Source of the DNA: an uncultured Gammaproteobacteria bacterium
GTDB lineage: Bacteria; Patescibacteriota; Microgenomatia; Levybacterales; UBA12049
NCBI GenBank assembly: GCA_964408485.1
Contig: CAYOZJ010000001.1
Span: 28,366 to 92,365 of the forward strand
Reading direction: 5' to 3'
Length of the DNA stretch: 64,000 nt
Shown here: piece by piece, positions 705 through 15,990 of the stretch
Layout of the letters: each line of letters opens with the position of its first letter
How positions within the stretch are numbered: position 1 is the first letter of the stretch
Program-made: the position numbers and the translations under genes
The notes under the pieces: generated by a model
Told to the model about the DNA's origin: nothing
Database searches by the model: none
The model's input: only the letters and a program-made list of their open reading frames with translations

Positions 705-819
705 AAACCTATTGCGTGTATACACTGGCCTCTTGCAATGAGTGAAAAGTTTTGATATTCTAATTATCACAATGACATTCTCAAAAAGATTTAGTTTTTT
801 CTTTTTTAACTCCTTAGAT

Positions 820-898
820 GGGGGAGAATGTAGTTGCTAAACTAATTTAGACAAAAGCACAACAACTCCCCACAGCGGGAGTTTTTTTGTGGGTTATG
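820..898 (+). ncRNA. structured RNA motif ending in an intrinsic terminator (family F, copy 1)
   Basis: GGGGGAG...TGTAGTTGCT...CTCCCC ACAGC GGGAG followed by T7. The same architecture is seen at 2637-2690, 6342-6390 and 13178-13251. Confidence 0.4.
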
Positions 899-1695: not shown

Positions 1696-2250
1696 GTGAC
1701 CCGAGAAACAGCTCTTCAAATTCTTACCAAACACCTTTCCAATAAAGTACTTCTTAAGCATTCATTAGCAGTTGAGGCTGTAATGCGGTCGTTAGCGCCT
1801 ATGTTTAAGGGAGATATAGAAGAATGGGGCATAGCAGGACTACTTCACGATGCAGACTACGACGAAGCAAAAGGACAGCCAGAAAGGCATGGATTTCTTC
1901 TTTTTCAACTTGAGCCAAATATGATTCCCAGTGTTGTCGAGCACGCAATTAAATCTCATAATTTTGAAGATACGCATATTGCACCAGAATCTCCCATGGA
2001 CTGGGCATTGTATTGCTGCGACGACCTAACGGGAATCATTACCGAGCTTGCCCAAGCACAGAAAGAAAAGGTCCTGTCATCAATCTCTTCCCAACAAATT
2101 GTCCAAGAGCTACTAGAAAAGCATAAAAACAAGAAAAATACACATCTTGCTGCTTTTCTGTCTGAGGAAAAATTAGGCATACCCCTCGAGCAATTTGTTA
2201 TTTTAAACTTAAAAGCAATGCAAGCAGCTCATGAAGAATTGGGATTATAG
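1696..2250 (+). CDS. HD-domain phosphohydrolase
   Basis: H...HD motif (GLLHDADYDE) and later conserved His typical of the HD/HDIG superfamily. GTG start. A TGCTATACT extended -10 lies 6 nt upstream. Confidence 0.65.
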   Translation: MTRETALQILTKHLSNKVLLKHSLAVEAVMRSLAPMFKGDIEEWGIAGLLHDADYDEAKGQPERHGFLLFQLEPNMIPSVVEHAIKSHNFEDTHIAPESPMDWALYCCDDLTGIITELAQAQKEKVLSSISSQQIVQELLEKHKNKKNTHLAAFLSEEKLGIPLEQFVILNLKAMQAAHEELGL

Positions 2251-2287
2251 ATATTGACTTCTTTTTTCTTCTGTTTATACTAAAAAT

Positions 2288-2563
2288 ATGATAAAGAAAA
2301 ACCAACCAGTCACAAAAGAAGAACTTAAAGAGGTGCTAAGAGACTATCCCACAAAAGATTATTTAGAAGACAGATTGGAGCTGTTTGAAAAAGGTATTGT
2401 CGAAGAGTTGGACGAGCGCATGGATAAGAAGTTTAAAATATACTTTAAAACAAACTTTGACGCGTTCTATCAAAGACTTATGAAGGGGATGGGTATTACC
2501 GTTGTAACCCATGAACAGAGAATCACAAAACTTGAAGACACTGTTTTCCCAACCAAAAGTTGA
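2288..2563 (+). CDS. hypothetical protein (91 aa)
   Basis: Intact ORF with a charged helical composition. No family recognised. Confidence 0.4.
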   Translation: MIKKNQPVTKEELKEVLRDYPTKDYLEDRLELFEKGIVEELDERMDKKFKIYFKTNFDAFYQRLMKGMGITVVTHEQRITKLEDTVFPTKS

Positions 2564-2690
2564 CAACATAATTTTCTTTATGATAAACTTATTAGTAATG
2601 AAACGACAAATTGCATTAACAACTACTACAACTCTTAGTTAGGAGGTTGTAGTTGCTGTGCAAAATATGACCTCCGAAAGGAGGTTTTTT
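2560..2690 (+). ncRNA. candidate small RNA: promoter (TTGACA-N18-TAAACT with upstream TG) plus ~100-nt transcript ending in family-F terminator (copy 2)
   Basis: -35 at 2560-2565, TGaTAAACT at 2581-2589. Inside are the stem CTACAAC...GTTGTAG, AGGAGG...CCTCC GAAA GGAGG and T6 (2671-2690). Confidence 0.4.
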
Positions 2691-2781
2691 GATGGAAAAC
2701 GTCCTTTCGAATAAAACGAGAGGCCTATCGAAGAGATTTCTCACTTTGTTCGAAATGACAAAGAGAAGGAGGTGAGAAAAT

Positions 2782-2976: not shown

Positions 2977-3047
2977 AAATAAGGGAGAAGGGCGAACGTC
3001 GACCTGCCTTACTCCTTTCAAAGCAAAAATGAATTTGATACTATTAT

Positions 3048-3072
3048 GTCATTCTGAACGAAGCGAAGAATC
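3048..3072. repeat. short hairpin repeat unit GTCATTCTGAACGAAGCGAAGAATC (family A)
   Basis: Member of the dispersed GTCATYC...GRATC family, whose copies are listed in the findings. Confidence 0.7.
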
Positions 3073-3080
3073 TAGAAATA

Positions 3081-3131
3081 GGTGAGCAAACCTCACCCCA
3101 ACCCTCTCCTAAAAGGCGAGGGAGATCAAGG
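3081..3131 (+). promoter_or_regulatory. conserved thrS leader: GGTGAG-loop-CTCACC hairpin plus CCCTCTCC-TAAAAGG-CGAGGGAG hairpin (family D)
   Basis: The same two-hairpin arrangement, with the same GTCAT-type element before it, precedes pheS at 6470-6524. A TAAAAGG/TAGAAGG loop sits between complementary CCTCTCC/GGAGAGG arms just 5' of the AAGGA RBS. Confidence 0.45.
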
Positions 3132-3139
3132 AAAAATTT

Positions 3140-4900
3140 ATGAATATGGAAAAATTACAACATCTTAGGCATACGGCAGCACATTTACTTGCTGCAGCTG
3201 TTTTGCGCTTATATCCTGGCGCACATAATGCCATAGGACCATCAATCGAGGAAGGATTTTACCAAGACTTTGATATGGGCGAGCATAAAATTTCTGAGAA
3301 TGATCTTCCAAAAATAGAGGAAGAAATGAGAAAAATTGTTAAAGATTGGCATCACTTTGAAGTAAAAGAAGTAACACCGGATGAAGCAAGAAAAGCATTT
3401 GCTCACAATCCTTATAAATCAGAGCTTATAGAGGAGTTTGCTAAAGAAGGCAAAACAATTACCCTCAATAATCCTGGTGATTTTCTCGATCTTTGTAAAG
3501 GCGGACACTCTGACAACCCAGCAGAAGAGCTGAAGCATTTCAAGCTAATGAAGCTTGCTGGTGCATATTGGAGGGGAAGCGAAAAAAATAAAATGCTTAC
3601 CAGAATTTATGGAACAGCATTTTTCTCTCAAAAAGAATTGGATGACTATCTCCAAATGCTTGAAGAGGCAGAAAAACGAGACCATAAAAAATTAGGCAAA
3701 GAACTTGATCTATTTTTCTTTACAGAAACAGCTCCAGGTATGCCATATTGGTTACCAAAAGGACTTATTGTCTTCAATGAGCTTCTTAATTTTTCAAGAA
3801 GTGTAAGGAAAAGCTACGGCTATACAGAAATCATGACACCCATTATGTCCAAAAAGGAATTGTATGAGACATCAGGACATTGGTTTCATTACAGAGATGA
3901 CATGTTTATTTCCCCAATGAGCTATCTTCGCGGAGATAGTAAGGATCCATACGTTGGAGCAGAGATTTTTGGCATAAAACCAATGAATTGCCCCAATGCA
4001 ATGACTGTTTTTGCATCTATGACACGCTCGTATAGAGATTTGCCAATGAGATTATCCGAAACAACAGCACTTCATAGATTTGAATTATCTGGAACACTGA
4101 ATGGACTTTTCAGGGCGCGAGAATTTCATCAGGATGACTCCCATATTTTTGTGGGCATGAATCAAGTGGGAGAAGAATTTCAGAGAATTATTGAAACAAT
4201 TGAAATTTTCTATAAAGCGTTTGATCTTAAATACAAGCTTCGCTTTGGCACAAGACCAGAAAACTTTATGGGAGAAGCAAAGGACTGGGATATTGCAGAA
4301 AGAGAACTCAAGGTTGTTTTAGACAAATCAGGCCAAGAGTACTTCGAAGCAGCAGGAGAAGGGGCATTTTACGGACCAAAAATAGATATTCTTATGAAAG
4401 ACTCATTGGGCCGTGAATGGCAAACAGGGACAATTCAGCTTGATTTCCAGCAACCGAAAAATTTTAAACTAAAATACACAGATAGTGAAGGGAAGGATGT
4501 CCAACCTGCAGCATTCCATGTAGCGATTTATGGCTCATTTGAGCGCTTCCTTGGCATTCTTATTGAGAATTTTGAAGGAAAGCTTCCAACCTGGCTCGCG
4601 CCTGTCCAAGTTGCCCTTCTTCCTATTGCTGACAGGCACAATGACTATGCACAAAGTGTGGCTAAAGAGCTTGAAAAGATGGGATTTCGTGCAGAAGTTG
4701 ACAGTAGCCCAGAACGTCTCCAGGCTAAAATACGCAATGCAACTTTACAACATGTACCATTTATGGGTATAATAGGGGACAAGGAAATTGAGAATAAGGC
4801 TATCTCTGTAAGGAAACGAAGCAGTGAAGATTTAGGACCAATCTCTTTAGACCAATTTTTAGCCCAACTTAAGGGAGAAGTAGAAAACAAAGTTGTATAA
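3140..4900 (+). CDS. thrS: threonyl-tRNA synthetase
   Basis: Class II aaRS with HLRHTAAHLLAAAV, a tRNA_SAD editing-domain region and an anticodon-binding domain. At 586 aa it lacks the N-terminal TGS domain. Confidence 0.95.
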   Translation: MNMEKLQHLRHTAAHLLAAAVLRLYPGAHNAIGPSIEEGFYQDFDMGEHKISENDLPKIEEEMRKIVKDWHHFEVKEVTPDEARKAFAHNPYKSELIEEFAKEGKTITLNNPGDFLDLCKGGHSDNPAEELKHFKLMKLAGAYWRGSEKNKMLTRIYGTAFFSQKELDDYLQMLEEAEKRDHKKLGKELDLFFFTETAPGMPYWLPKGLIVFNELLNFSRSVRKSYGYTEIMTPIMSKKELYETSGHWFHYRDDMFISPMSYLRGDSKDPYVGAEIFGIKPMNCPNAMTVFASMTRSYRDLPMRLSETTALHRFELSGTLNGLFRAREFHQDDSHIFVGMNQVGEEFQRIIETIEIFYKAFDLKYKLRFGTRPENFMGEAKDWDIAERELKVVLDKSGQEYFEAAGEGAFYGPKIDILMKDSLGREWQTGTIQLDFQQPKNFKLKYTDSEGKDVQPAAFHVAIYGSFERFLGILIENFEGKLPTWLAPVQVALLPIADRHNDYAQSVAKELEKMGFRAEVDSSPERLQAKIRNATLQHVPFMGIIGDKEIENKAISVRKRSSEDLGPISLDQFLAQLKGEVENKVV

Positions 4901-5474
4901 ACGTACATTCAGTCCAAGACAACAATTTCGAATAAATGAGCGAATTTTCGCAAATTCTCTTCGGGTTTTGGACATAGAGGGCAAACAAGTTGGTGTTCTT
5001 TCAAAAACAGAAGCATTAAATAAAGCTCGCGAATTAGGAGTAGACCTGGTCGAAGTCGCACCACAAGCTACCCCTCCTGTTGCTAGACTTATTGATTACA
5101 ATAAGTTTTTGTACCAGGTAGAGAAGAAAAAGCGAGAAGAAAAACGAAAAGCAAAATCAACCGAGACAAAAGAAGTGAGGCTTGGACCCTTTATGGGTGC
5201 AGCCGATCTGGATAACATGACCAATCGGGCGAAAGGCTTTTTGCAGGACGGAAATAAAGTCCGTTTAGTGCTGAAATTCAGGGGAAGACAAATTGTTCAT
5301 CCTGAATTTGGACATGAAACAATTCAGAAGATGGTTGCAGCGTTAGCAGATGTTTCGAAAGTCGAAAAAGAACCTCGACTTGAAGGAAAACAGCTTATTG
5401 CAATTATCTCACCAGAAAGGAAAAAAACAAAAAATGAAGAAGAAAATCAAGAACTCAGTAGCCAGACGGTTTAA
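4893..5474 (+). CDS. infC: translation initiation factor IF-3
   Basis: INERI...LRVLDIEGKQVGVL...ARELGVDLVEV IF3 N- and C-domain signatures in the classic infC-rpmI-rplT order. Lys/Glu-rich C-terminal extension. Confidence 0.9.
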   Translation: MYKRTFSPRQQFRINERIFANSLRVLDIEGKQVGVLSKTEALNKARELGVDLVEVAPQATPPVARLIDYNKFLYQVEKKKREEKRKAKSTETKEVRLGPFMGAADLDNMTNRAKGFLQDGNKVRLVLKFRGRQIVHPEFGHETIQKMVAALADVSKVEKEPRLEGKQLIAIISPERKKTKNEEENQELSSQTV

Positions 5475-5628
5475 AGTTACCAAAACAGGTAAGGTACTTT
5501 TTGCACATCAAAATGCAGGGCATTTAAAAGCAGCAAAGTCTAACCGAAATAAAAGACGTAATAAAGTCCCAGGAGTACTTCCTGAAATGTTTGGAAGAAA
5601 AATAAAGAAGATGCTAGGGTATCTATAA
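5434..5628 (+). CDS. rpmI: 50S ribosomal protein L35
   Basis: MKKKIKNSVARRFKVTKTGKVLFAHQNAGH matches the L35 pattern (KxKTxxxxxKRFKxTxxGKV). The start was chosen at the internal Met, so it overlaps the infC 3' end. The ORF-track start at 5350 is probably too long. Confidence 0.8.
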   Translation: MKKKIKNSVARRFKVTKTGKVLFAHQNAGHLKAAKSNRNKRRNKVPGVLPEMFGRKIKKMLGYL

Positions 5629-5688
5629 AGAAAGGTTTATTCTTCGAGCGAAGCGAGAAGTTCTCACATTCGTTCGAACAATACATAT

Positions 5689-6039
5689 ATGAGAGTTAAA
5701 AGAGGAACAGTATCAAGACGAAAACATAATAAGCTTCTAGAACAAGCAGCGGGTTACCGTGGATCTCGTTCTAAATTAGTCCGCACAGCTAAACAAGCAG
5801 TACTTCAAGCAGGAAGTTATGCCTTTGCGGGTCGAAAGAATAAAAAGCGAGACTTCAGACAACTCTGGATTACCAGAATTTCTGAGGCAGCTAAAGAGCA
5901 GGAATTTTCCTACAGTAAGCTCATGAATAAACTTAAAAATGCCAACATTACCCTTGATAGAAAGATTCTTGCAGATATTGTTAATAGTGACCCAGAAACC
6001 TTTACACACTTGGTTGAAATGGCAAAGAAAGCCAACTAA
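5689..6039 (+). CDS. rplT: 50S ribosomal protein L20
   Basis: MRVKRGTVSRRKHNKLLEQAAGYRG...RDFRQLWITRI, the canonical L20 sequence. Confidence 0.95.
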   Translation: MRVKRGTVSRRKHNKLLEQAAGYRGSRSKLVRTAKQAVLQAGSYAFAGRKNKKRDFRQLWITRISEAAKEQEFSYSKLMNKLKNANITLDRKILADIVNSDPETFTHLVEMAKKAN

Positions 6040-6040
6040 T

Positions 6041-6304
6041 ATGTCAGCGGGTAGAAATCTTCATATAGAACGAGGTAATCTTCTAGAGAAATATAATGCA
6101 GCTACAACACGATTAACAGATGCAAAAAGAGAACATGGACGAAGAGGAAGTGCAGTAGCAGACGATAAACAGGAAGCGGGGCAATTAAGTAGAGCACTGG
6201 CAGCAAATAGAATTGCGCTAAAGGAAGAAAACAATACAGCACACGAAAGATATGTTCTTGGAAAAGCACAAGCGCAAGATCACAACACTCTTAATCAAGG
6301 ATGA
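6041..6304 (+). CDS. small hypothetical protein (87 aa)
   Basis: ATG at 6041 immediately after the rplT stop. The upstream part of ORF-track 5939..6304 overlaps rplT in another frame and was discarded. Low confidence. Confidence 0.3.
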   Translation: MSAGRNLHIERGNLLEKYNAATTRLTDAKREHGRRGSAVADDKQEAGQLSRALAANRIALKEENNTAHERYVLGKAQAQDHNTLNQG

Positions 6305-6341
6305 CAAATAAACTCTTTTTCTTTACATTTATTTCCTTTAA

Positions 6342-6390
6342 TTAGGAGGTTTTGTAGTGAAAAGCAAAAACCTCCGAAGGGAGGTTTTTT
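6342..6390 (+). terminator. family-F motif copy 3: AGGAGG...CCTCC GAAG GGAGG T6
   Basis: Hairpin CCTCC/GGAGG followed by a T-run. The upstream AGGAGG is complementary to the same CCTCC. Confidence 0.55.
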
Positions 6391-6393
6391 AAT

Positions 6394-6450
6394 GTCATCC
6401 CGCACTAGATGCGGGATCCAGAATTAGATTCCTGCTTTCGCAGGAATGAC
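6394..6450. repeat. composite hairpin repeat: GTCATCC-CGCACTAGATGCG-GGATC plus GATTCCTGC-TTTC-GCAGGAATGAC
   Basis: Two hairpin units in opposite orientation give overall terminal inverted repeats GTCAT...ATGAC. The same composite is at 16108-16167 and, in-frame, inside recG and the HhH-GPD gene. Confidence 0.7.
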
Positions 6451-6469
6451 AATCTGTTCTATAATCTAT

Positions 6470-6524
6470 GTGAGGAAATAACCTCACCTCAATCCTCTCC
6501 TAGAAGGAGAGGAAGAATAAAAGG
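6470..6524 (+). promoter_or_regulatory. conserved pheS leader (GTGAGG-loop-CCTCAC hairpin plus CCTCTCC-TAGAAGG-AGAGG hairpin; family D)
   Basis: Paralogous to the thrS leader at 3081-3131, immediately 5' of the pheS RBS. Confidence 0.45.
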
Positions 6525-6536
6525 AGAAAATTATAT

Positions 6537-7598
6537 ATGGAAGAACAATTAATGCAATTAAAAAATGATGCGCTAAGTCTTATCTTGGATGCATCTGACA
6601 AAAAAACGCTTGAGGAAATTAAGCTTCAATTTCTAGGAAAGAGTGGCAAGCTGACTCTGGCATTAAAAGATATTACAAAAGTTCCAATGGAAAAAAGGGC
6701 AGAAGTAGGCAAATTAGCTAATGAAGTAAAGCAGTCAGTTGAGGAAGCAATAGAGCGACAAGGAGAAGGCCTTACCCATAAGAGCCGTGAGACAAAGCGT
6801 CTGTCTTTAGACGTTACCAATCCAGGAATCAAGCCTCCACTTGGCCATTTACATTTAATAACGCAGGCAATTCAAGAAATTACCAGTATCTTTGAAAAAA
6901 TTGGATTTACTCGCGTAAGATATCCTGAAATTGATTGGGATTATTATGCATTTACTGCACTTAATTTTCCGGAAAATCATCCTGCACGAGATGATTGGGA
7001 AACATTTTTTACAAAAGAAGATACCGATAGTAAAAAAGGGCAAATTGTCCTTACGCCACATACATCTAATGGGCAGGTTAGAGAAATGGAGCGAGCTGTT
7101 GCAGAGAGTAAGGTAACAGGGCAACCAGTGAGTATCCGCATGCTCAATATTGCAAAATGCTACAGAAGGCAATCTGATGTCTCCCATACGCAAATGTTTC
7201 ATCAATTCGAAGGGCTTGTTGTTGGAGAAAATATTTCCATTGTCCATTTGAAGGGAGTACTGGATTATTTTGTAAAGTCATACTTCGGAGAAAATCGCAC
7301 ATCTCGAATCCGACCGTATCACTTTCAATTTACCGAACCCTCTTTTGAAATAGATGTTACGTGTGGCGTGTGTCTAGGCAAAGGATGCAAGCTCTGTAAA
7401 GCAGGATGGCTAGAAATGGGCGGAGCAGGTATGGTACATCCAAATGTCCTAAAATATGGCGGTGTTGATACGAAAAAATACACGGGCTTTGCATTTGGCT
7501 GGGGAGTCGAGCGAGTGCTCATGATGAAAGAGGGAATAGAGATAGATGACTTACGTTTACTCTATTCTAATAAATTAGAGTTTCTAGAACAGTTTTAA
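6537..7598 (+). CDS. pheS: phenylalanyl-tRNA synthetase alpha subunit
   Basis: Class II motifs (FQFTEPSFEIDV, GWLEMGGAGMVHPNVL). Confidence 0.95.
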   Translation: MEEQLMQLKNDALSLILDASDKKTLEEIKLQFLGKSGKLTLALKDITKVPMEKRAEVGKLANEVKQSVEEAIERQGEGLTHKSRETKRLSLDVTNPGIKPPLGHLHLITQAIQEITSIFEKIGFTRVRYPEIDWDYYAFTALNFPENHPARDDWETFFTKEDTDSKKGQIVLTPHTSNGQVREMERAVAESKVTGQPVSIRMLNIAKCYRRQSDVSHTQMFHQFEGLVVGENISIVHLKGVLDYFVKSYFGENRTSRIRPYHFQFTEPSFEIDVTCGVCLGKGCKLCKAGWLEMGGAGMVHPNVLKYGGVDTKKYTGFAFGWGVERVLMMKEGIEIDDLRLLYSNKLEFLEQF

Positions 7599-7599
7599 T

Positions 7600-7971
7600 A
7601 TGAAAATTACATCATATGATCAGGCAATTCATGTAACAAAGCCAACAGGACTTAAGGTGAGTTATTATTTATTTGATGAATATGAGGTGCACGTAAATGA
7701 GCAGCCACCACACAGTGTTCAAGATTGGCATCATCATGAAAAGATTTGGGAAAGTCTCATTATTTTAGAAGGGGAGTTAATCGCTAAATGGAAAGAAAAT
7801 GGGGAAGAAAAACAAGCAACCGTTAAAGCAGGAGATATTATTGAAACTGAGCATACACCGCATATTTTTGAGAACCAAACAGATAGTACGGTAAAGTTTA
7901 TTGTTTTAAAACAAGTAACAACAGGGGGGAATAAAAGGGAATTACTTAAAACAGATAAGGTTTTGGATTAA
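7600..7971 (+). CDS. cupin-domain protein
   Basis: Two-His cupin-like motifs (WHHHEKIW...GDIIETEHTPH). Sits between pheS and pheT. Confidence 0.55.
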   Translation: MKITSYDQAIHVTKPTGLKVSYYLFDEYEVHVNEQPPHSVQDWHHHEKIWESLIILEGELIAKWKENGEEKQATVKAGDIIETEHTPHIFENQTDSTVKFIVLKQVTTGGNKRELLKTDKVLD

Positions 7972-7973
7972 CT

Positions 7974-9929
7974 ATGGATATAAAAATACTTGATTCACAC
8001 TTACGAGAATATTTGCATACAGATGCCAAACCTATGGAGATTGCAAAAGCAGTATCCTTGACAAGTGCATCTATTGAACGTGTTGAACAATACGGAAAAG
8101 ATTTTGTGTATTCTGTAGAAATAACAACCAACAGACCGGATATGGTTAGTGTTTACGGCCTAGCAAGAGAAGCAGCTGCTGTTTTACCGTCCTTTGGATT
8201 TAGCGCAAAATTAGTACCTCTCAAACTTCCTGAAGTAAAAGTTGAAACAGATAAAAAAGAAAGTATAAAAGTTGTCAATGACGACACACTAGTAAGACGG
8301 GTTATGGGAGTTATTATAGAAGTTACAAAAGGAGAGTCGCCACAATATATGAAAGACCGACTTGATGCTGCAGGAATAAGAAGTCTTAATAATATTATTG
8401 ATGTCACTAATTATGTAATGCTTGAAATTGGTCATCCAACTCATGCATTTGATTACGATAGACTAACAACTAAGCAACTTATCATTAGACCTTCCAAAAA
8501 AGGAGAAAAGGTTATTACGCTTGATAAGAAAGAACACATACTACAGGGAGGCGATATTGTGGCAGATGATGGAACAGGTGAGATAGTTGACCTTCTCGGC
8601 GTAATGGGAACAGCAAATAGTGTCGTGACAGATAGCACGAAGCGAGTATTTTTCTTTCTCGACAATAATGATCCGTGGAAAATCAGAAAAACATCTATGG
8701 GCCTAGCTATTCGGACCGAGGCAGCAGCGCTCAACGAGAAGGGAGTCGACCCACAACTTGCTGAAGTAGCACTCAAAAGAGGAGTAGAGTTGTATAGACA
8801 GATGGGTGGAAAAGTTGTTAGTGACGTCATTGACATCTATCCGGGGAAAGTAAAACAGACAACAGTACGTGTTACTGTTGAGGAGATTTCCAAAATCATT
8901 GGTGTTGACGTAAAGGGGCGTCAAGCAGTCAAAATCCTGACAGATTTAGGTTTTGAAGTCTCTGAAAATTCTAGCAGTCTTACAGTTAAAGTGCCAAGTT
9001 GGCGGGAAGGGGACGTTGCAATTCCAGAAGATGTTATCGAAGAAGTCGCAAGATTGTATGGGTATCATAATATTCCGGTAAGACTTCCACCCTTCACTAT
9101 TCATAGTTTTTATCATCAAGGACAGAGTCAATTTTTCTGGGAACAGAAAGTAAAAGACGCATTAAAGTATTGGGGACTAACAGAAGTGTACACATACTCT
9201 ATGGTAAGTGAAACGCTTTTTGAAGGACCTCTAGAAGAAGCAGTAACGCTAGCAAATGCATTGGATAGCGAGCATGTCCATATGCGAGCAACACTAACAC
9301 CCAGCTTACTTCAAGTAGTTGCAGAGAATAAAGCACGTGAGAATGTGGCCATTTTTGAAATTGCCAATGTCTACAAGAAAAATAAGAAAGAAAAACTTCC
9401 CGATGAATTGCGAAGTCTCAGCTTTGTCCTAAAAGGAGAAAAGGGAACTTTTGCTAACGCAAAGGGGATTGTAGAGCAACTATTACATGAGCTGGGCATT
9501 CATAATGCTATTTATAGAGACTCCGAACTTGGTGGCATTGGAGCGAGTGTGTATATTGGAAAAGAGTCTATTGGCACAATTGAGGTTATGGAAAGCAGAT
9601 TGGTAACAGCAGAACTTAATTTTGAAAAGCTACTTATGCATGTAACCTTAAAAAAAGTCTATAAGCCACTCAGCAAATATCCTGCAATTACGGAAGACGT
9701 GTCATTCCTACTGCCTGAAGAAGTAAAAACAGGAGATGTTATAGAAGATATTCGTTTAACTGATAAGTTAATTGTAAACATTGAACTTCTTGATGTGTTT
9801 GAGAATAGCCGAACATTCCATGTTGTGTATCAAGATCCAGAAAGAAATCTAACAACAGAAGATGTGAGTGGTATTCATAAGAAAATTATTTCCTCTGTTG
9901 AGAAAAAGTTTAAAGGAAAGGCAAAATAG
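7974..9929 (+). CDS. pheT: phenylalanyl-tRNA synthetase beta subunit (short form)
   Basis: B3/B4 and B5 domains plus the C-terminal catalytic-like and FDX-ACB regions are recognisable. At 651 aa it lacks the N-terminal tRNA-binding domain. Confidence 0.9.
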   Translation: MDIKILDSHLREYLHTDAKPMEIAKAVSLTSASIERVEQYGKDFVYSVEITTNRPDMVSVYGLAREAAAVLPSFGFSAKLVPLKLPEVKVETDKKESIKVVNDDTLVRRVMGVIIEVTKGESPQYMKDRLDAAGIRSLNNIIDVTNYVMLEIGHPTHAFDYDRLTTKQLIIRPSKKGEKVITLDKKEHILQGGDIVADDGTGEIVDLLGVMGTANSVVTDSTKRVFFFLDNNDPWKIRKTSMGLAIRTEAAALNEKGVDPQLAEVALKRGVELYRQMGGKVVSDVIDIYPGKVKQTTVRVTVEEISKIIGVDVKGRQAVKILTDLGFEVSENSSSLTVKVPSWREGDVAIPEDVIEEVARLYGYHNIPVRLPPFTIHSFYHQGQSQFFWEQKVKDALKYWGLTEVYTYSMVSETLFEGPLEEAVTLANALDSEHVHMRATLTPSLLQVVAENKARENVAIFEIANVYKKNKKEKLPDELRSLSFVLKGEKGTFANAKGIVEQLLHELGIHNAIYRDSELGGIGASVYIGKESIGTIEVMESRLVTAELNFEKLLMHVTLKKVYKPLSKYPAITEDVSFLLPEEVKTGDVIEDIRLTDKLIVNIELLDVFENSRTFHVVYQDPERNLTTEDVSGIHKKIISSVEKKFKGKAK

Positions 9930-13088: not shown

Positions 13089-13251
13089 TTGACATACATA
13101 TTCTTTTTTGCTAAACTAATCCTATAACTATGAAGAGTAATTCAGCACAAAACAGTTATTACTACAGTTTCTCTGACGGGGGAGACTGTACTTGTCGTGC
13201 ATAATTAGCAAATTTCAACAAATACACAATCTCCCACCAGGGAGATTTTTT
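13089..13251 (+). ncRNA. candidate small RNA: promoter TTGACA-N17-TAAACT plus ~125-nt transcript ending in family-F terminator (copy 4)
   Basis: -35 at 13089-13094 and -10 at 13112-13117, the same TAAACT -10 as the 2560 copy. Contains ACTACAG...CTGTAC pairing, GGGGGAG...CTCCC ACCAG GGAGA, and T6 at 13229-13251. Confidence 0.4.
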
Positions 13252-13299
13252 GTGTTCTATAGACATTTTTAAAGATAGCACACAATCCATCCGAAGCCT

Positions 13300-14475
13300 T
13301 TGGCGAAGGAGGATATGGAAAATATGAAAATAATAATAAATAACCAAGCACAAAAGTGGCTTGCTCAAAAGGAAAAGACATACACAAAGCCTTTCAAGAC
13401 AGAAGGAGTAATTTCCATGCACCTGGGAGAATGCTCTTTCCCAATCAAAACTCTGGAGAAAATTTTTCTCAGAACAAATTTTTCTGTAGCGCAGAAATAC
13501 CCAAAACAAACTACAGAAATAAAGAAAAAGCTCGCCAAAACATTTTCTATTACAGAAAACATGCTTGTGATGGGAAATGGGTCAGATGAGATTATTGAAA
13601 ATATTCCTCGGGTATTTTTAAACCCAGGAGATACTGTTCTTGTTGTAGTTCCAACGTTTTTCCGATTTCTTGATGCATCGGAAAAAGCAGGAGCAAAGAT
13701 ACACATAATCAAAACAAAGAAATCTGACAACTTTAGCATTACAGATGACATTACAAAAAAGATTATTCAAACAACGAAAGAGAAAAATATAAAACTTATC
13801 TGGCTTTGTAGCCCCAATAATCCAACAGGAATTCCTATTCCAAAGCAACATATAGAAAAGATTGCCAAGAAAACCAAATCTCTTATTGTATTGGATCAGG
13901 TATATGCAGAATTACAGGAAAATTCTTTTCTTAAACCTAAAGAAATTATTAAGAAGTTTCCGAATATTATCATTCTAAAAAGTTTTTCAAAAGTTTTCGG
14001 CCTTGCGGGACTTCGCGTGGGCTTTGCAATTGCAAATAAAAACATTGCTCAAAAACTTGAGAAATGGAATATGCCTTTTCATATTTCTTCATTGTCTCTT
14101 GAAATCGTAAAGAATGTTTTATCTCAAAAAAATGATATTACCTTAGAGGTAAGAAAAGTTGTAGAAAAAGAAAGAAATTTTTTAATTCACAAATTGAGAA
14201 AACAAAAAAATATAGAAGTTATTGAAGGATCACAGACAAATCTTATTCTTCTTCGTCATAAGACGAAAAATATATTTCAAGAACTTTTTAAAAGAAATAT
14301 TCTTGTTGCTGATTTTAATAATGCAAAAGGTATTGAAGGTATGGGTTTTGCAAGAGTAAGTCTTGGAACAAGAAATCAAAGCGCACTTCTTGTTAAAGCA
14401 TTAAACGATATTGATTCAACCTCTTTCTCTGACTCTGAAAGGAATCTTTCAGAGAATCAATATGAAAGGAGGTGA
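13300..14475 (+). CDS. class I/II PLP-dependent aminotransferase (HisC-like)
   Basis: SFSKVFGLAGLRVGFAIAN lysine motif and NPTG motif typical of the HisC/CobD family. Start may lie at a nearby downstream Met. Confidence 0.8.
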   Translation: MAKEDMENMKIIINNQAQKWLAQKEKTYTKPFKTEGVISMHLGECSFPIKTLEKIFLRTNFSVAQKYPKQTTEIKKKLAKTFSITENMLVMGNGSDEIIENIPRVFLNPGDTVLVVVPTFFRFLDASEKAGAKIHIIKTKKSDNFSITDDITKKIIQTTKEKNIKLIWLCSPNNPTGIPIPKQHIEKIAKKTKSLIVLDQVYAELQENSFLKPKEIIKKFPNIIILKSFSKVFGLAGLRVGFAIANKNIAQKLEKWNMPFHISSLSLEIVKNVLSQKNDITLEVRKVVEKERNFLIHKLRKQKNIEVIEGSQTNLILLRHKTKNIFQELFKRNILVADFNNAKGIEGMGFARVSLGTRNQSALLVKALNDIDSTSFSDSERNLSENQYERR

Positions 14476-14699: not shown

Positions 14700-14769
14700 A
14701 GCTCTCTTACGGTAAGTGATTAGTCCGCGGCTAGTCACTTAAAAAATTTCATGCTATACTTTTGACGAT

Positions 14770-15990
14770 ATGGATAAAATAGAAGAACTATTAACAAGAG
14801 GAGTCGATACGGTATATCCAACAACAGACGCTTTGGAAAAAGCTTTGCGTGGTGGAAAAAAATTAACACTCTATCAGGGTTTTGATCCAACCGGCATCCA
14901 AATGCATATCGGTCATATGGTTGGATTTAGAAAGCTTGCGCAGTTTCAAAAGTTAGGACATCACGTAATCTTCCTTATTGGTGACGGAACAGGTCTTGCT
15001 GGAGATCCATCAGGTAAGACACGAGCTCGGGAGAAGTTTTTAAGCAGAGACGAACTTCGAGCAAATGCTTTGGATTATGTTAAGCAAGCAAGTAAATTAG
15101 TTAATTTTGAAGGAGAAAATGCCGTTGAAATTAAATACAACGGTGATTGGCTCACAAAACTAACACTCCAAGACATCCTGGAAATTGCAGGTAACTTTAC
15201 CTTGCAGCAATTAGAAGAGCGTGATTTATTCGAAAAGCGCAAACAAAGTGGTGAGCCAATCAACATGCGGGAATTCATGTATCCACTCCTTCAAGGATAT
15301 GATTCAGTTGCAATGAATGTTGATCTTGAACTAGGTGGATCAGATCAAATGTTTAACATGCTTGCTGGAAGAACTCTTGTTCAAAATATGTTGCGCAAAG
15401 AAAAATTTGTTATGACCACACCCCTTCTTACTGATAGTGAGGGAAGAAAAATTGGCAAGACAGAAGGTAATGTGATTGCACTTAATGATACTCCGGAGAA
15501 GATATTTGGAGACATAATGAATTTACCAGATGAAATAGTTATTAAAGGCTTAGAATACTTAACCGACATTCCAATGCAAGAGATTCACTCAATTGATGAA
15601 AGGATAAATAACGGAGCTAATCCTCAAGAGTTCAAAATGCTACTTGCAACAGAGGTCATAAAACAGCTTACAAGCGAAAAGGATGCTCAAAGGGCAAAAG
15701 TGACATTTGAAAACTCAATTAGACCTACAGCAGATATTTTTCAAATTTCCTTCCCAACTACGCTTGTTTCGGGCGCAACAATCATTGATGGACTAACAGA
15801 ACTACAGCTAGCTACAAGTAGATCAGAGGCTAAGAATTTAGTTAATGCTGGCGGAACAGCGATAATTACAAATGAATCAGGTCAAGTAAAAACTTCCACT
15901 ATTAAAAATCCTTCTGATCTTCTTCCAACAGGAGAATATTTTATTCGCGTTGGCAAGAAACCAATCGTGAAAGTGAAAAAGGAAGAATAA
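14770..15990 (+). CDS. tyrS: tyrosyl-tRNA synthetase
   Basis: HIGH motif (MHIGHMVGF), KMSKS-like KIGKTEG, and a C-terminal S4-like domain. TGCTATACT extended -10 lies 9 nt upstream of the ATG. Confidence 0.95.
   Translation: MDKIEELLTRGVDTVYPTTDALEKALRGGKKLTLYQGFDPTGIQMHIGHMVGFRKLAQFQKLGHHVIFLIGDGTGLAGDPSGKTRAREKFLSRDELRANALDYVKQASKLVNFEGENAVEIKYNGDWLTKLTLQDILEIAGNFTLQQLEERDLFEKRKQSGEPINMREFMYPLLQGYDSVAMNVDLELGGSDQMFNMLAGRTLVQNMLRKEKFVMTTPLLTDSEGRKIGKTEGNVIALNDTPEKIFGDIMNLPDEIVIKGLEYLTDIPMQEIHSIDERINNGANPQEFKMLLATEVIKQLTSEKDAQRAKVTFENSIRPTADIFQISFPTTLVSGATIIDGLTELQLATSRSEAKNLVNAGGTAIITNESGQVKTSTIKNPSDLLPTGEYFIRVGKKPIVKVKKEE

Follow-up and report, generated by a model that had tools for sequence, protein, structure and literature searches.

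Four elements, here called L1 to L4, lie on the + strand of a 64-kb stretch of DNA (38.5% G+C; hereafter, the window) from an uncultured bacterium placed in the Levybacterales of the Patescibacteriota (GenBank assembly GCA_964408485.1, contig CAYOZJ010000001.1, positions 28,366 to 92,365). We conclude that they are very probably ribosome-dependent leader-peptide transcription attenuators that sense charged tRNA-Thr (L2), tRNA-Phe (L1 and L3), and tRNA-Tyr/Phe (L4). Each element opens with a short open reading frame (ORF) rich in one amino acid, and cognate genes follow downstream on the same strand; the apparent target of L1 is an orphan ORF. Attenuators of this kind are known and their mechanism is textbook; the gain is in scope, not in principle. 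New are the lineage, which belongs to the candidate phyla radiation (CPR), thrS as a target, an apparently leaderless arrangement within CPR, and the small ORFs associated with the elements.

Hardly anything is known of how genes are regulated in CPR/Patescibacteria, a group of uncultured organisms with reduced genomes. The elements suggest that a Levybacteria-like lineage would sense charged tRNA via transcription–translation coupling on apparently leaderless mini-ORFs, and would in this way control aminoacyl-tRNA synthetases (thrS and pheST). PheS groups the window with Candidatus Levybacteria and other Patescibacteria metagenome-assembled genomes. For comparison, 80 Levybacteria loci (L001 to L080) were fetched, each with 10-kb flanks.

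Shared architecture of the four loci

The original prediction drew attention to four + strand loci at which G-rich, C-rich, and again G-rich strands precede a T-run, and proposed that the middle strand can pair either way. All of these strands are present, and the two pairings are mutually exclusive helices of comparable energy at each locus. Specifically, a hairpin with a T-run occupies positions 864-883 (L1), 2669-2686 (L2), 6366-6389 (L3), and 13228-13247 (L4). The energies of these terminator hairpins range from -11.3 to -14.9 kcal/mol; each hairpin is followed by 5-7 U residues and is positioned 3' of the leader ORF and 5' of the regulated genes. A G-rich copy of the 3' arm lies 20-50 nucleotides upstream (GGGGAG at 821-826, GGAGGT at 2642-2647, GGAGGT at 6345-6350, and GGGGGA at 13178-13183). 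Because of this copy, the C-rich strand has two possible partners.

The alternatives extend further. Region 1, the region of the regulatory codons, pairs with the G-rich region 2, which also pairs with the C-rich region 3, and every locus holds three mutually exclusive helices of similar energies: 1:2, the 2:3 antiterminator, and the 3:4 terminator. For these helices in turn, separate segment folds at each locus gave -6.4, -15.4, and -14.9 kcal/mol (L1), -18.1, -16.8, and -11.3 kcal/mol (L2), -5.5, -13.2, and -13.8 kcal/mol (L3), and -15.6, -15.9, and -12.8 kcal/mol (L4). The sequence TGTAGTTG is common to the elements; in the Thr type it complements the Thr codons ACAACUACA and hence lies within helix 1:2. 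The stop codon UAG adjoins region 2 in L2 and L3, and the ORF reads through region 2 in L1 and L4. Coordinates are collected in Table 1.

The arm copy is a property of more terminators than these four. Of 450 terminators from the window and the 80 related loci, 23% repeat a 5-mer of their 3' arm no more than 80 nucleotides upstream. Such a copy is found in ~6% of cases in shuffled sequence or in sequence 300 nucleotides farther off, an enrichment of ~4-fold, so the architecture is no chance feature of terminators in the lineage. Within the window, a scan of its whole 64 kb for a terminator with an upstream arm copy and a short ORF found no further terminator with this architecture, and a covariance model built from Thr-type leaders matches just L2 and L3.

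Two of the copies had been described as having near-identical promoters, and this is the case: TTGACA-18-TAAACT precedes L2 and TTGACA-17-TAAACT precedes L4, both with TG-extended -10 boxes. The distance from the -10 box to the ATG is 6-12 nucleotides in L1, L2, L4, and the Thr leaders of relatives, and the ATG lacks a Shine–Dalgarno (SD) sequence. The ATG of L2 is 8 nucleotides past the -10 box, so its transcript would be leaderless or nearly so. The -10 of the weak candidate promoter of L1 ends 10 nucleotides before the leader ATG, which would leave a 5' untranslated region (UTR) of only ~3-4 nucleotides. The Thr leaders of relatives begin 6-9 nucleotides past their -10 boxes. Many ordinary genes in the lineage start in the same manner: pheS and tyrS of relatives begin 6-9 nucleotides past a -10 box without an SD, and, in the window, an ORF at 1426 starts 6 nucleotides past a perfect TATAAT.

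As a separate observation, apparently leaderless starts occur in the window at 1391-1428 and 14732-14772 and at pheS and tyrS across L001-L080; their -10 boxes match the consensus and are often TG-extended. The tyrS gene of relatives is nearly always preceded by TATGCTATACT.

We propose that the elements operate as follows. Transcription would start a few nucleotides before the short ORF and, with no SD present, translation would be leaderless or nearly so; at L3, it would instead be coupled to that of a preceding ORF. When charged tRNA is plentiful, the ribosome would reach the stop codon and mask region 2, the 3:4 terminator would form, and a terminated transcript of ~90-130 nucleotides would be released. 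Were the leader to go untranslated, region 1 would sequester region 2, and termination would again result. When charged tRNA is scarce, the ribosome would stall on the Thr, Phe, or Tyr codons and cover region 1; regions 2 and 3 would then pair, and the terminator would be blocked. Read-through would proceed into thrS-infC-rpmI-rplT, pheS-pheT, the aminotransferase gene and possibly tyrS, or, at L1, the orphan sORF1.

The threonine leader upstream of thrS

The L2 element is very well supported as an attenuator and is the most secure of the set, followed by L3 and then by L1 and L4. Its leader carries five consecutive Thr codons, the sole run of five Thr when the 64 kb is translated in all six frames, and lies ~500 nucleotides upstream of thrS. 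Runs of at least four Thr occur just twice in that translation, and the L2 leader is one of the two. Orthologues of the leader are present in eight related loci (L002, L008, L029, L040, L053, L061, L068, and L079), and L2 scores 77.8 bits against the covariance model.

The folding behavior of L2 follows the textbook pattern. When a ribosome footprint was masked, the RNA refolded, and the lowest-energy folds compared, a ribosome stalled at Thr codons 1-3 gave the antiterminator. The free RNA gave helix 1:2 together with the terminator, and a ribosome at the stop codon gave the terminator. Only stalls at the first Thr codons drove the switch.

A small orphan ORF, sORF2, is located between the attenuator and thrS. 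In addition, an ATG follows the GGAGG of region 4 and the T-run of L2 by 7 nucleotides and opens a 27-codon ORF (2693-2776) that ends in the SD of sORF2. A comparable ATG is found in L3 (6392-6427, 11 codons), and a start codon occupies this position in several relatives as well. Such a start codon right after the T-run may reflect coupling or chance. We considered region 4 (GGAGG) as an SD for these starts in L2, L3, and several relatives, and rejected the idea: the pattern is indistinguishable from chance in T/G-rich tails and is partly explained by A-tract/U-tract extension of the hairpin.

The phenylalanine leader upstream of pheS and pheT

L3 stands between rplT and pheS, in the gene order thrS-infC-rpmI-rplT-leader-pheS-pheT that is also found at Escherichia coli pheST. 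In E. coli, the leader is pheM, and L3 is the positional and structural counterpart of pheM. Both leader peptides are Phe-rich and 14 residues long: the pheM product contains FFFYFST before the stop, the L3 leader has FFFTFISFN before the stop, and the consensus core of the aromatic leaders of relatives is F[WG]FYFTS. Downstream of E. coli pheM, the RNA reads GGAGGCU...AGCCUCC-CAGU-GGAGGCU-U7. PheM and L3 thus have in common a GGAGG soon after the stop codon, a region 3 of the form (G)CCUCC, and a region 4 of the form GGAGG(C) followed by a U-run.

There are differences as well. Unlike the pheM leader, the L3 leader is preceded by an inserted ORF of 87 amino acids whose TGA overlaps the leader ATG (ATGA), and pheS has an extra promoter downstream of the element. 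The L3 leader has neither a promoter nor an SD of its own; because its ATG overlaps the TGA of the inserted ORF, it would be translated by coupling. Since the element is absent from the window's closest relatives, orthology with pheM and convergence are both possible. The covariance model of the Thr leaders, built on elements of another codon class, also matches L3 (39 bits, E = 2.8e-4). A cupin-domain gene encoding 123 amino acids is wedged between pheS and pheT.

The L1 and L4 leaders

The L1 leader is in frame with a listed ORF at 742-840 and resembles the pheS leaders MTFSKNYFWFYFTPPGGGSLVE of L049 and MTFVKNYFWFYFTSPGEGSLVA of L041. Its terminator forms by pairing of AACUCCC (864-870) with GGGAGUU (877-883). 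The apparent target is sORF1, because it is the sole gene before the next terminator (1084-1121); beyond sORF1 come that terminator and then a tRNA-Val gene. Both sORF1 and sORF2 matched themselves alone among 5.8 billion proteins, and sORF1 has no Pfam or NCBIfam match.

L4 presents a coherent arrangement, a Tyr/Phe leader before an aromatic-type aminotransferase gene and tyrS, and these two genes are its likely targets. The masked folds of both L1 and L4 switch to the antiterminator at some stall positions.

Table 1. Positions of the proposed attenuator elements and associated genes in the window and, in the last row, of related elements in the Levybacteria loci
Feature	Position	Strand	Remarks
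L1 candidate promoter	733-761	+	TTGCAA, 17-nucleotide spacer, TGaTATTCT (TG-extended -10); 8/12, below scan threshold; weak
L1 leader ORF	772-840	+	MTFSKRFSFFFFNSLDGGECSC, then stop; ATG 772-774; Phe codons 790-807 (FSFFFF); region 1 CUCCUU 810-815
L1 switch	821-890	+	Region 2 GGGGAG 821-826; region 3 CUCCCC 866-871; T-run ends 890
sORF1, 49 amino acids	915-1064	+	SD GGAAGGAGGTGA; sole gene between L1 and next terminator
L2 promoter	2560-2589	+	TTGACA, 18-nucleotide spacer, TGaTAAACT (TG-extended -10); 10/12 in promoter scan
L2 leader ORF	2598-2642	+	MKRQIALTTTTTLS, then stop; five consecutive Thr codons 2619-2633 = region 1
L2 switch	2642-2691	+	Region 2 GGAGGUUGUAGUUG 2642-2655; region 3 UAUGACCUCC 2666-2675; region 4 GGAGGUU 2680-2686, then T-run
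sORF2, 64 amino acids	2782-2976	+	SD AGAAGGAGGTGA; between L2 attenuator and thrS
thrS, threonine--tRNA ligase	3140-4900	+	TIGR00418 636 bits and Pfam; cognate target of L2
infC	4893-5474	+	Downstream of thrS
rpmI	5431-5628	+	Downstream of thrS
rplT	5689-6039	+	Downstream of thrS
Unnamed ORF, 87 amino acids	6041-6304	+	Without family match; between rplT and L3 leader
L3 leader ORF	6301-6345	+	MTNKLFFFTFISFN, then stop; region 1 AUUUCCU 6331-6337; residues FFFTFISF
L3 switch	6344-6390	+	Region 2 AGGAGGUUUUG 6344-6354; region 3 AAAAACCUCC 6366-6375; region 4 GGAGGUUUUU 6380-6389
pheS	6537-7598	+	Cognate target of L3
Cupin gene	7600-7971	+	Target of L3, with pheS and pheT
pheT	7974-9929	+	Cognate target of L3
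L4 promoter	13089-13117	+	TTGACA, 17-nucleotide spacer, TGcTAAACT (TG-extended -10); leader ATG 12 nucleotides past -10
L4 leader ORF	13130-13204	+	MKSNSAQNSYYYSFSDGGDCTCRA, then stop; Tyr codons 13157-13165; residues YYYSFS; region 1 UACAGUUUCUCU 13163-13174
L4 switch	13178-13252	+	Region 2 GGGGGAGACUGUA 13178-13190; region 3 AAUCUCCC 13228-13235; region 4 GGGAGAUU 13240-13247, then T-run
HisC-family class I/II aminotransferase	13324-14475	+	hisC TIGR01141 248 bits, below cutoff; likely target of L4
tyrS	14770-15990	+	TIGR00234 313 bits; likely target of L4
Ile- or Asn/Lys-rich elements in related loci	L028 ~4900-4997; L042 ~3871-3966; L056 ~4017-4107; L068 ~1599-1697; L033 178-273; L053 ~2189-2284		

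Conservation and covariation in relatives

The identity of the leader codons largely agrees with the gene that follows. Downstream genes of relatives were identified by clustering and Pfam. Among the 11 leaders of the Thr class, 10 have thrS no more than 1.5 kb downstream, none has pheS, and 1 lies elsewhere; in the aromatic class, thrS follows in no case and pheS in 15, and 16 lie elsewhere. The genes downstream in those 16 cases include DAHP synthase, 3-dehydroquinate synthase, prephenate dehydratase, and a pfkB kinase. That aromatic-amino-acid biosynthesis genes appear to be under control in relatives implies that relatives use and regulate these pathways. A scan of the 80 loci for a terminator, an upstream arm copy, and a short ORF recovered many analogous elements; their Thr leaders include MQNKQLVITTTTTTL, MKSQIALQTTTTTS, MQMQKFNTTTTTSS, and MNKQFALTTTTAL, each directly followed by (G)GGAGG and GUUGUAGUUG. 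The leaders of the pheS genes of relatives are ~300-400 nucleotides upstream, behind a small ORF, and were recovered by a structure-first scan; counts of amino-acid runs in all frames of the 700-nucleotide upstream regions were too noisy and were not used.

Regions 2 and 3 vary together. For this comparison, terminators were picked solely for a biased ATG-leader ORF. An exact complement of at least 5 nucleotides to the terminator's own 5' arm is found upstream in 71% of leader-ORF terminators and in 16% of others. Likewise, own arms match over a mean of 5.2 nucleotides versus 3.5 nucleotides for foreign arms (p = 6e-11). Region 3 occurs as CCUCC, CUCCC, UCUCCC, CCCCGC, and UCCCCC, each with matching regions 2 and 4.

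Seeded with 10 Thr leaders, a covariance model recovered 5 more, and its weaker hits are nearly all on the gene strand. Helix 1:2 of the Thr leaders has 86.5% of its cells paired, and both sides have changed in 6 of its 13 pairs. The values observed for the modeled structure (helix 1:2 plus terminator) were reached by only 0-2 of 500 shuffles. For both the covariation score and the share of paired cells, this structure also beats every slid control, although the control slid by -2 has more pairs changed on both sides. The MAFFT and Infernal alignments place terminators with 4-nucleotide and 6-nucleotide loops out of register; the pair count for helix 3:4 (64%) understates pairing, and helix 3:4 counts were therefore not used, while those for helix 1:2 were kept. 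The original prediction had called for compensatory covariation among the copies. It is present, both between regions 2 and 3 and in helix 1:2, and because of it the elements are not plain terminators. Conservation and covariation in relatives are direct observations, as are the ORFs, their codon bias, the three alternative helices, and the gene identities.

Weighing the alternatives

Several observations weigh against attenuation. The six-frame translation of the window contains 13 FFFF and 17 YYY runs. In an AT-rich genome, Phe and Tyr runs readily arise by chance; here they are not statistically unusual by themselves, and the codon argument alone is strong only for L2. Given the 17 YYY runs, L4 has the weakest case of the four if codons alone are considered. 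Because such runs are common by chance, the case for L1, L3, and L4 rests on structure, position, and comparison. Both pheS (TTCGCA-17-TATAAT, 6437-6465, 3' of L3) and tyrS (TG-extended, 14732-14760) have promoters of their own, and L3 may act as a gate on transcription reading through from the thrS-rplT operon into pheST instead of exerting sole control. The L3 terminator is the lowest-energy fold under every ribosome mask, so any antitermination at L3 would have to be kinetic. The closest relatives of the window show a plain rplT terminator where L3 sits, L4 has no recognizable orthologue in the 80 loci, and neither L1 nor L4 has an orthologue there at the DNA level. L1 is followed only by an orphan ORF of 49 amino acids and not by a cognate gene. 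The original prediction had suggested a comparison with Rfam. At gathering thresholds, the window and 8 related loci yielded tRNAs only and no leader family. Under relaxed thresholds, the best non-tRNA matches were to Phe_leader, on L3 (6300-6393, full model, 35.9 bits versus a gathering score of 55, E = 0.006 over 12.8 kb) and on L1 (776-891, 29.7 bits, E = 0.14), both below gathering; L2 had no match to Thr_leader (RF00506) even at E <= 5. Finally, the transcription start sites, the translation of the leaders, the stalling of ribosomes, and read-through with its regulatory outcome are all predicted.

Plain terminators after rplT in the closest relatives, frequent FFFF and YYY runs, and the separate promoters of pheS and tyrS are what one would expect if the elements, especially L3 and L1, were ordinary intrinsic terminators of upstream genes, with G-rich copies and biased ORFs arising by chance. 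We consider this highly improbable. Arm copies are not merely ~4-fold enriched, they are concentrated after biased leader ORFs; L2 and L4 follow promoters of their own with no gene between; leader class and gene match near-perfectly across genomes; and Phe_leader and the Thr model both pick L3. It is also improbable that the loci are independent genes for trans-acting small RNAs of ~100-130 nucleotides in which GGAGG and CCUCC act as SD/anti-SD mimics on mRNAs or ribosomes. The original prediction had put forward such a small-RNA family, with discrete short transcripts. A promoter and a terminator, both present at L2 and L4, would indeed yield these, with lengths of ~97 nucleotides (L2) and ~130 nucleotides (L4), but the products would be attenuated leader RNAs. 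The anti-SD core resembles region 3 (ACCUCC), and rnTrpL of Sinorhizobium is reportedly an attenuator-derived RNA that acts in trans; both points count for small RNAs. Left unexplained by that proposal, and overlooked when it was made, are the cognate-codon ORFs and their strict same-strand position before matching genes in many genomes, which argue for cis-acting attenuators, as does a helix 1:2 that includes the regulatory codons. Moreover, sequences vary between loci and lineages wherever the three-strand complementarity permits, which argues against a conserved interface with a trans target. A trans role of the leader RNAs could be secondary at most, and nothing found here requires one.

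The leader ORFs themselves invite one further reading, namely, that they encode functional Cys peptides (ribosomally synthesized and post-translationally modified, or signaling, peptides with a double-glycine leader and a tiny Cys-rich core) and that the structure of the RNA has no bearing on function. The C-termini of the L1 and L4 peptides, DGGECSC and DGGDCTCRA, share D-G-G-[ED]-C-[ST]-C. We rejected this reading as hardly credible: the motif is the mere translation of region 2 (GGGGGAGA) plus UGUAGUUG or UGUACUUG, and in L2 and L3 the same nucleotides lie past the stop codon and go untranslated. Related leaders end variably (SPGEGSLVA, PPGGGSLVE, SLTGR, or TS and a stop) while the RNA complementarity persists, and the gene that comes next downstream does not encode a recognizable peptide-maturation enzyme at any of the four window loci.

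Comparison with known systems

The attenuators proposed here have counterparts in known systems. The Rfam family Phe_leader (RF01859), the gamma-proteobacterial pheA leader pheL, belongs to the same mechanism class as L1 and L3, and both elements align to it over its full length, including the UUCC...GGAGG hairpin and the CCUCC/GGAGG terminator. The leader families in Rfam (Phe, Thr, Leu, His, and Trp) concern biosynthetic operons, whereas the targets here include aminoacyl-tRNA synthetases. That such cis-regulatory leaders are missed by the curated thresholds of Rfam is relevant to annotation pipelines.

In Firmicutes, thrS, pheS, and tyrS are usually controlled by T-box riboswitches. The T-box and the translational operator of E. 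coli thrS follow the same logic as the elements here, in that the synthetase is induced when charged tRNA is scarce. The T-box is also a terminator/antiterminator switch, but it binds tRNA directly, whereas the elements here would sense it via translation of cognate codons. No T-box was matched in the window by Rfam, at either the gathering or the E-value threshold, and because regions 2 and 3 are only ~20-45 nucleotides apart, there is no room for Stem I or a specifier.

Attenuation of synthetase genes has precedents. Classical attenuators control trpS and leuS in Streptomyces and pheST in gamma-proteobacteria (PMC1262725). In Deinococcus deserti, 14 leaderless leader peptides lie upstream of tRNA-synthetase and amino-acid genes, with attenuation predicted (PMC4007540). 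The present elements differ from the Deinococcus and Streptomyces cases in phylum (CPR/Patescibacteria), in their amino acids and genes (thrS, pheS, aro, and a HisC-like aminotransferase gene), and in the orphan small ORFs with strong SDs that often stand between attenuator and enzyme gene. A literature search, which was not exhaustive, found no report of attenuation or leader peptides in CPR/Patescibacteria.

Small ORFs and other downstream genes

Small ORFs recur behind the attenuators. In 16 of 52 cases, a small ORF of 49-94 amino acids with a near-perfect SD lies within 140 nucleotides, in place of an enzyme gene directly. The two in the window, sORF1 and sORF2, are both orphans and both contain RKPGF. 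Several related loci (L014, L018, L041, L049, and L079) have, between a Phe attenuator and pheS, small ORFs that include a conserved family of ~70 amino acids with the C-terminal motif TREGLAA(L/I)(I/V)E(L/M)HG, for which there is no Pfam match. The pheS gene behind this family is separately promoted, leaderless, and SD-less. Should an internal AUG without an SD be translated poorly, regulation in those genomes may act mainly on the small protein. More broadly, the first and sometimes only product of the attenuators could be a fast-evolving small protein, part of a starvation-induced set in CPR, and/or the leader RNAs could act in trans; we regard this as unlikely.

The identity of the leader codons also offers a label for unannotated downstream genes, a form of guilt by attenuator. 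By this token, the HisC-like enzyme downstream of L4 is likely an aromatic aminotransferase. Several small orphan proteins could be labeled in this way, as could two proteins under Thr leaders, one a HAD hydrolase and the other kinase-like. Specifically, Thr-type leaders are found before a HAD hydrolase in L014, L043, and L047 and before a P-loop/shikimate-kinase-like protein in L003. Attenuator-like elements with Ile-rich (e.g., MNTRSIISIIEIITS) or Asn/Lys-rich leaders precede unannotated proteins and an ATP-grasp protein (Table 1).

Additional features of the intergenic regions

A two-hairpin module sits in the 5' UTRs of thrS and pheS, immediately ahead of their start codons (3082-3128 and 6470-6515). 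It consists of GUGAG(G)-loop-(C)CUCAC and then CCUCUCC-loop-GGAGAGG or GAGGGAG, and both copies fold well (z about -3.5). These are the only two sites in the window, where 0.01 would be expected by chance, and none of the 80 related loci, in which pheS has a leaderless start, contains the module. Palindromes resembling repetitive extragenic palindromic sequences or miniature inverted-repeat transposable elements lie at 6394-6456, ~3045-3078, and ~5640-5690 (e.g., GUCAUCCCGCACUAGAUGCGGGAUCC...AUUCCUGCUUUCGCAGGAAUGAC, -27.6 kcal/mol, z = -5.8). Similar palindromes are intergenic in L003, L004, L012, L017, and L019, often beside promoters. Finally, at the end of rplT in L003 (~5909), and similarly in L001, L002, and L005-L008, GGUUGAGAUGGCAAAGAAAG, at the 3' end of the L20 coding sequence, complements CUUUCCAGCCGUUCUCAGCC immediately past the stop codon. 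In those relatives, this complementarity would give a long hairpin ahead of the rplT terminator.

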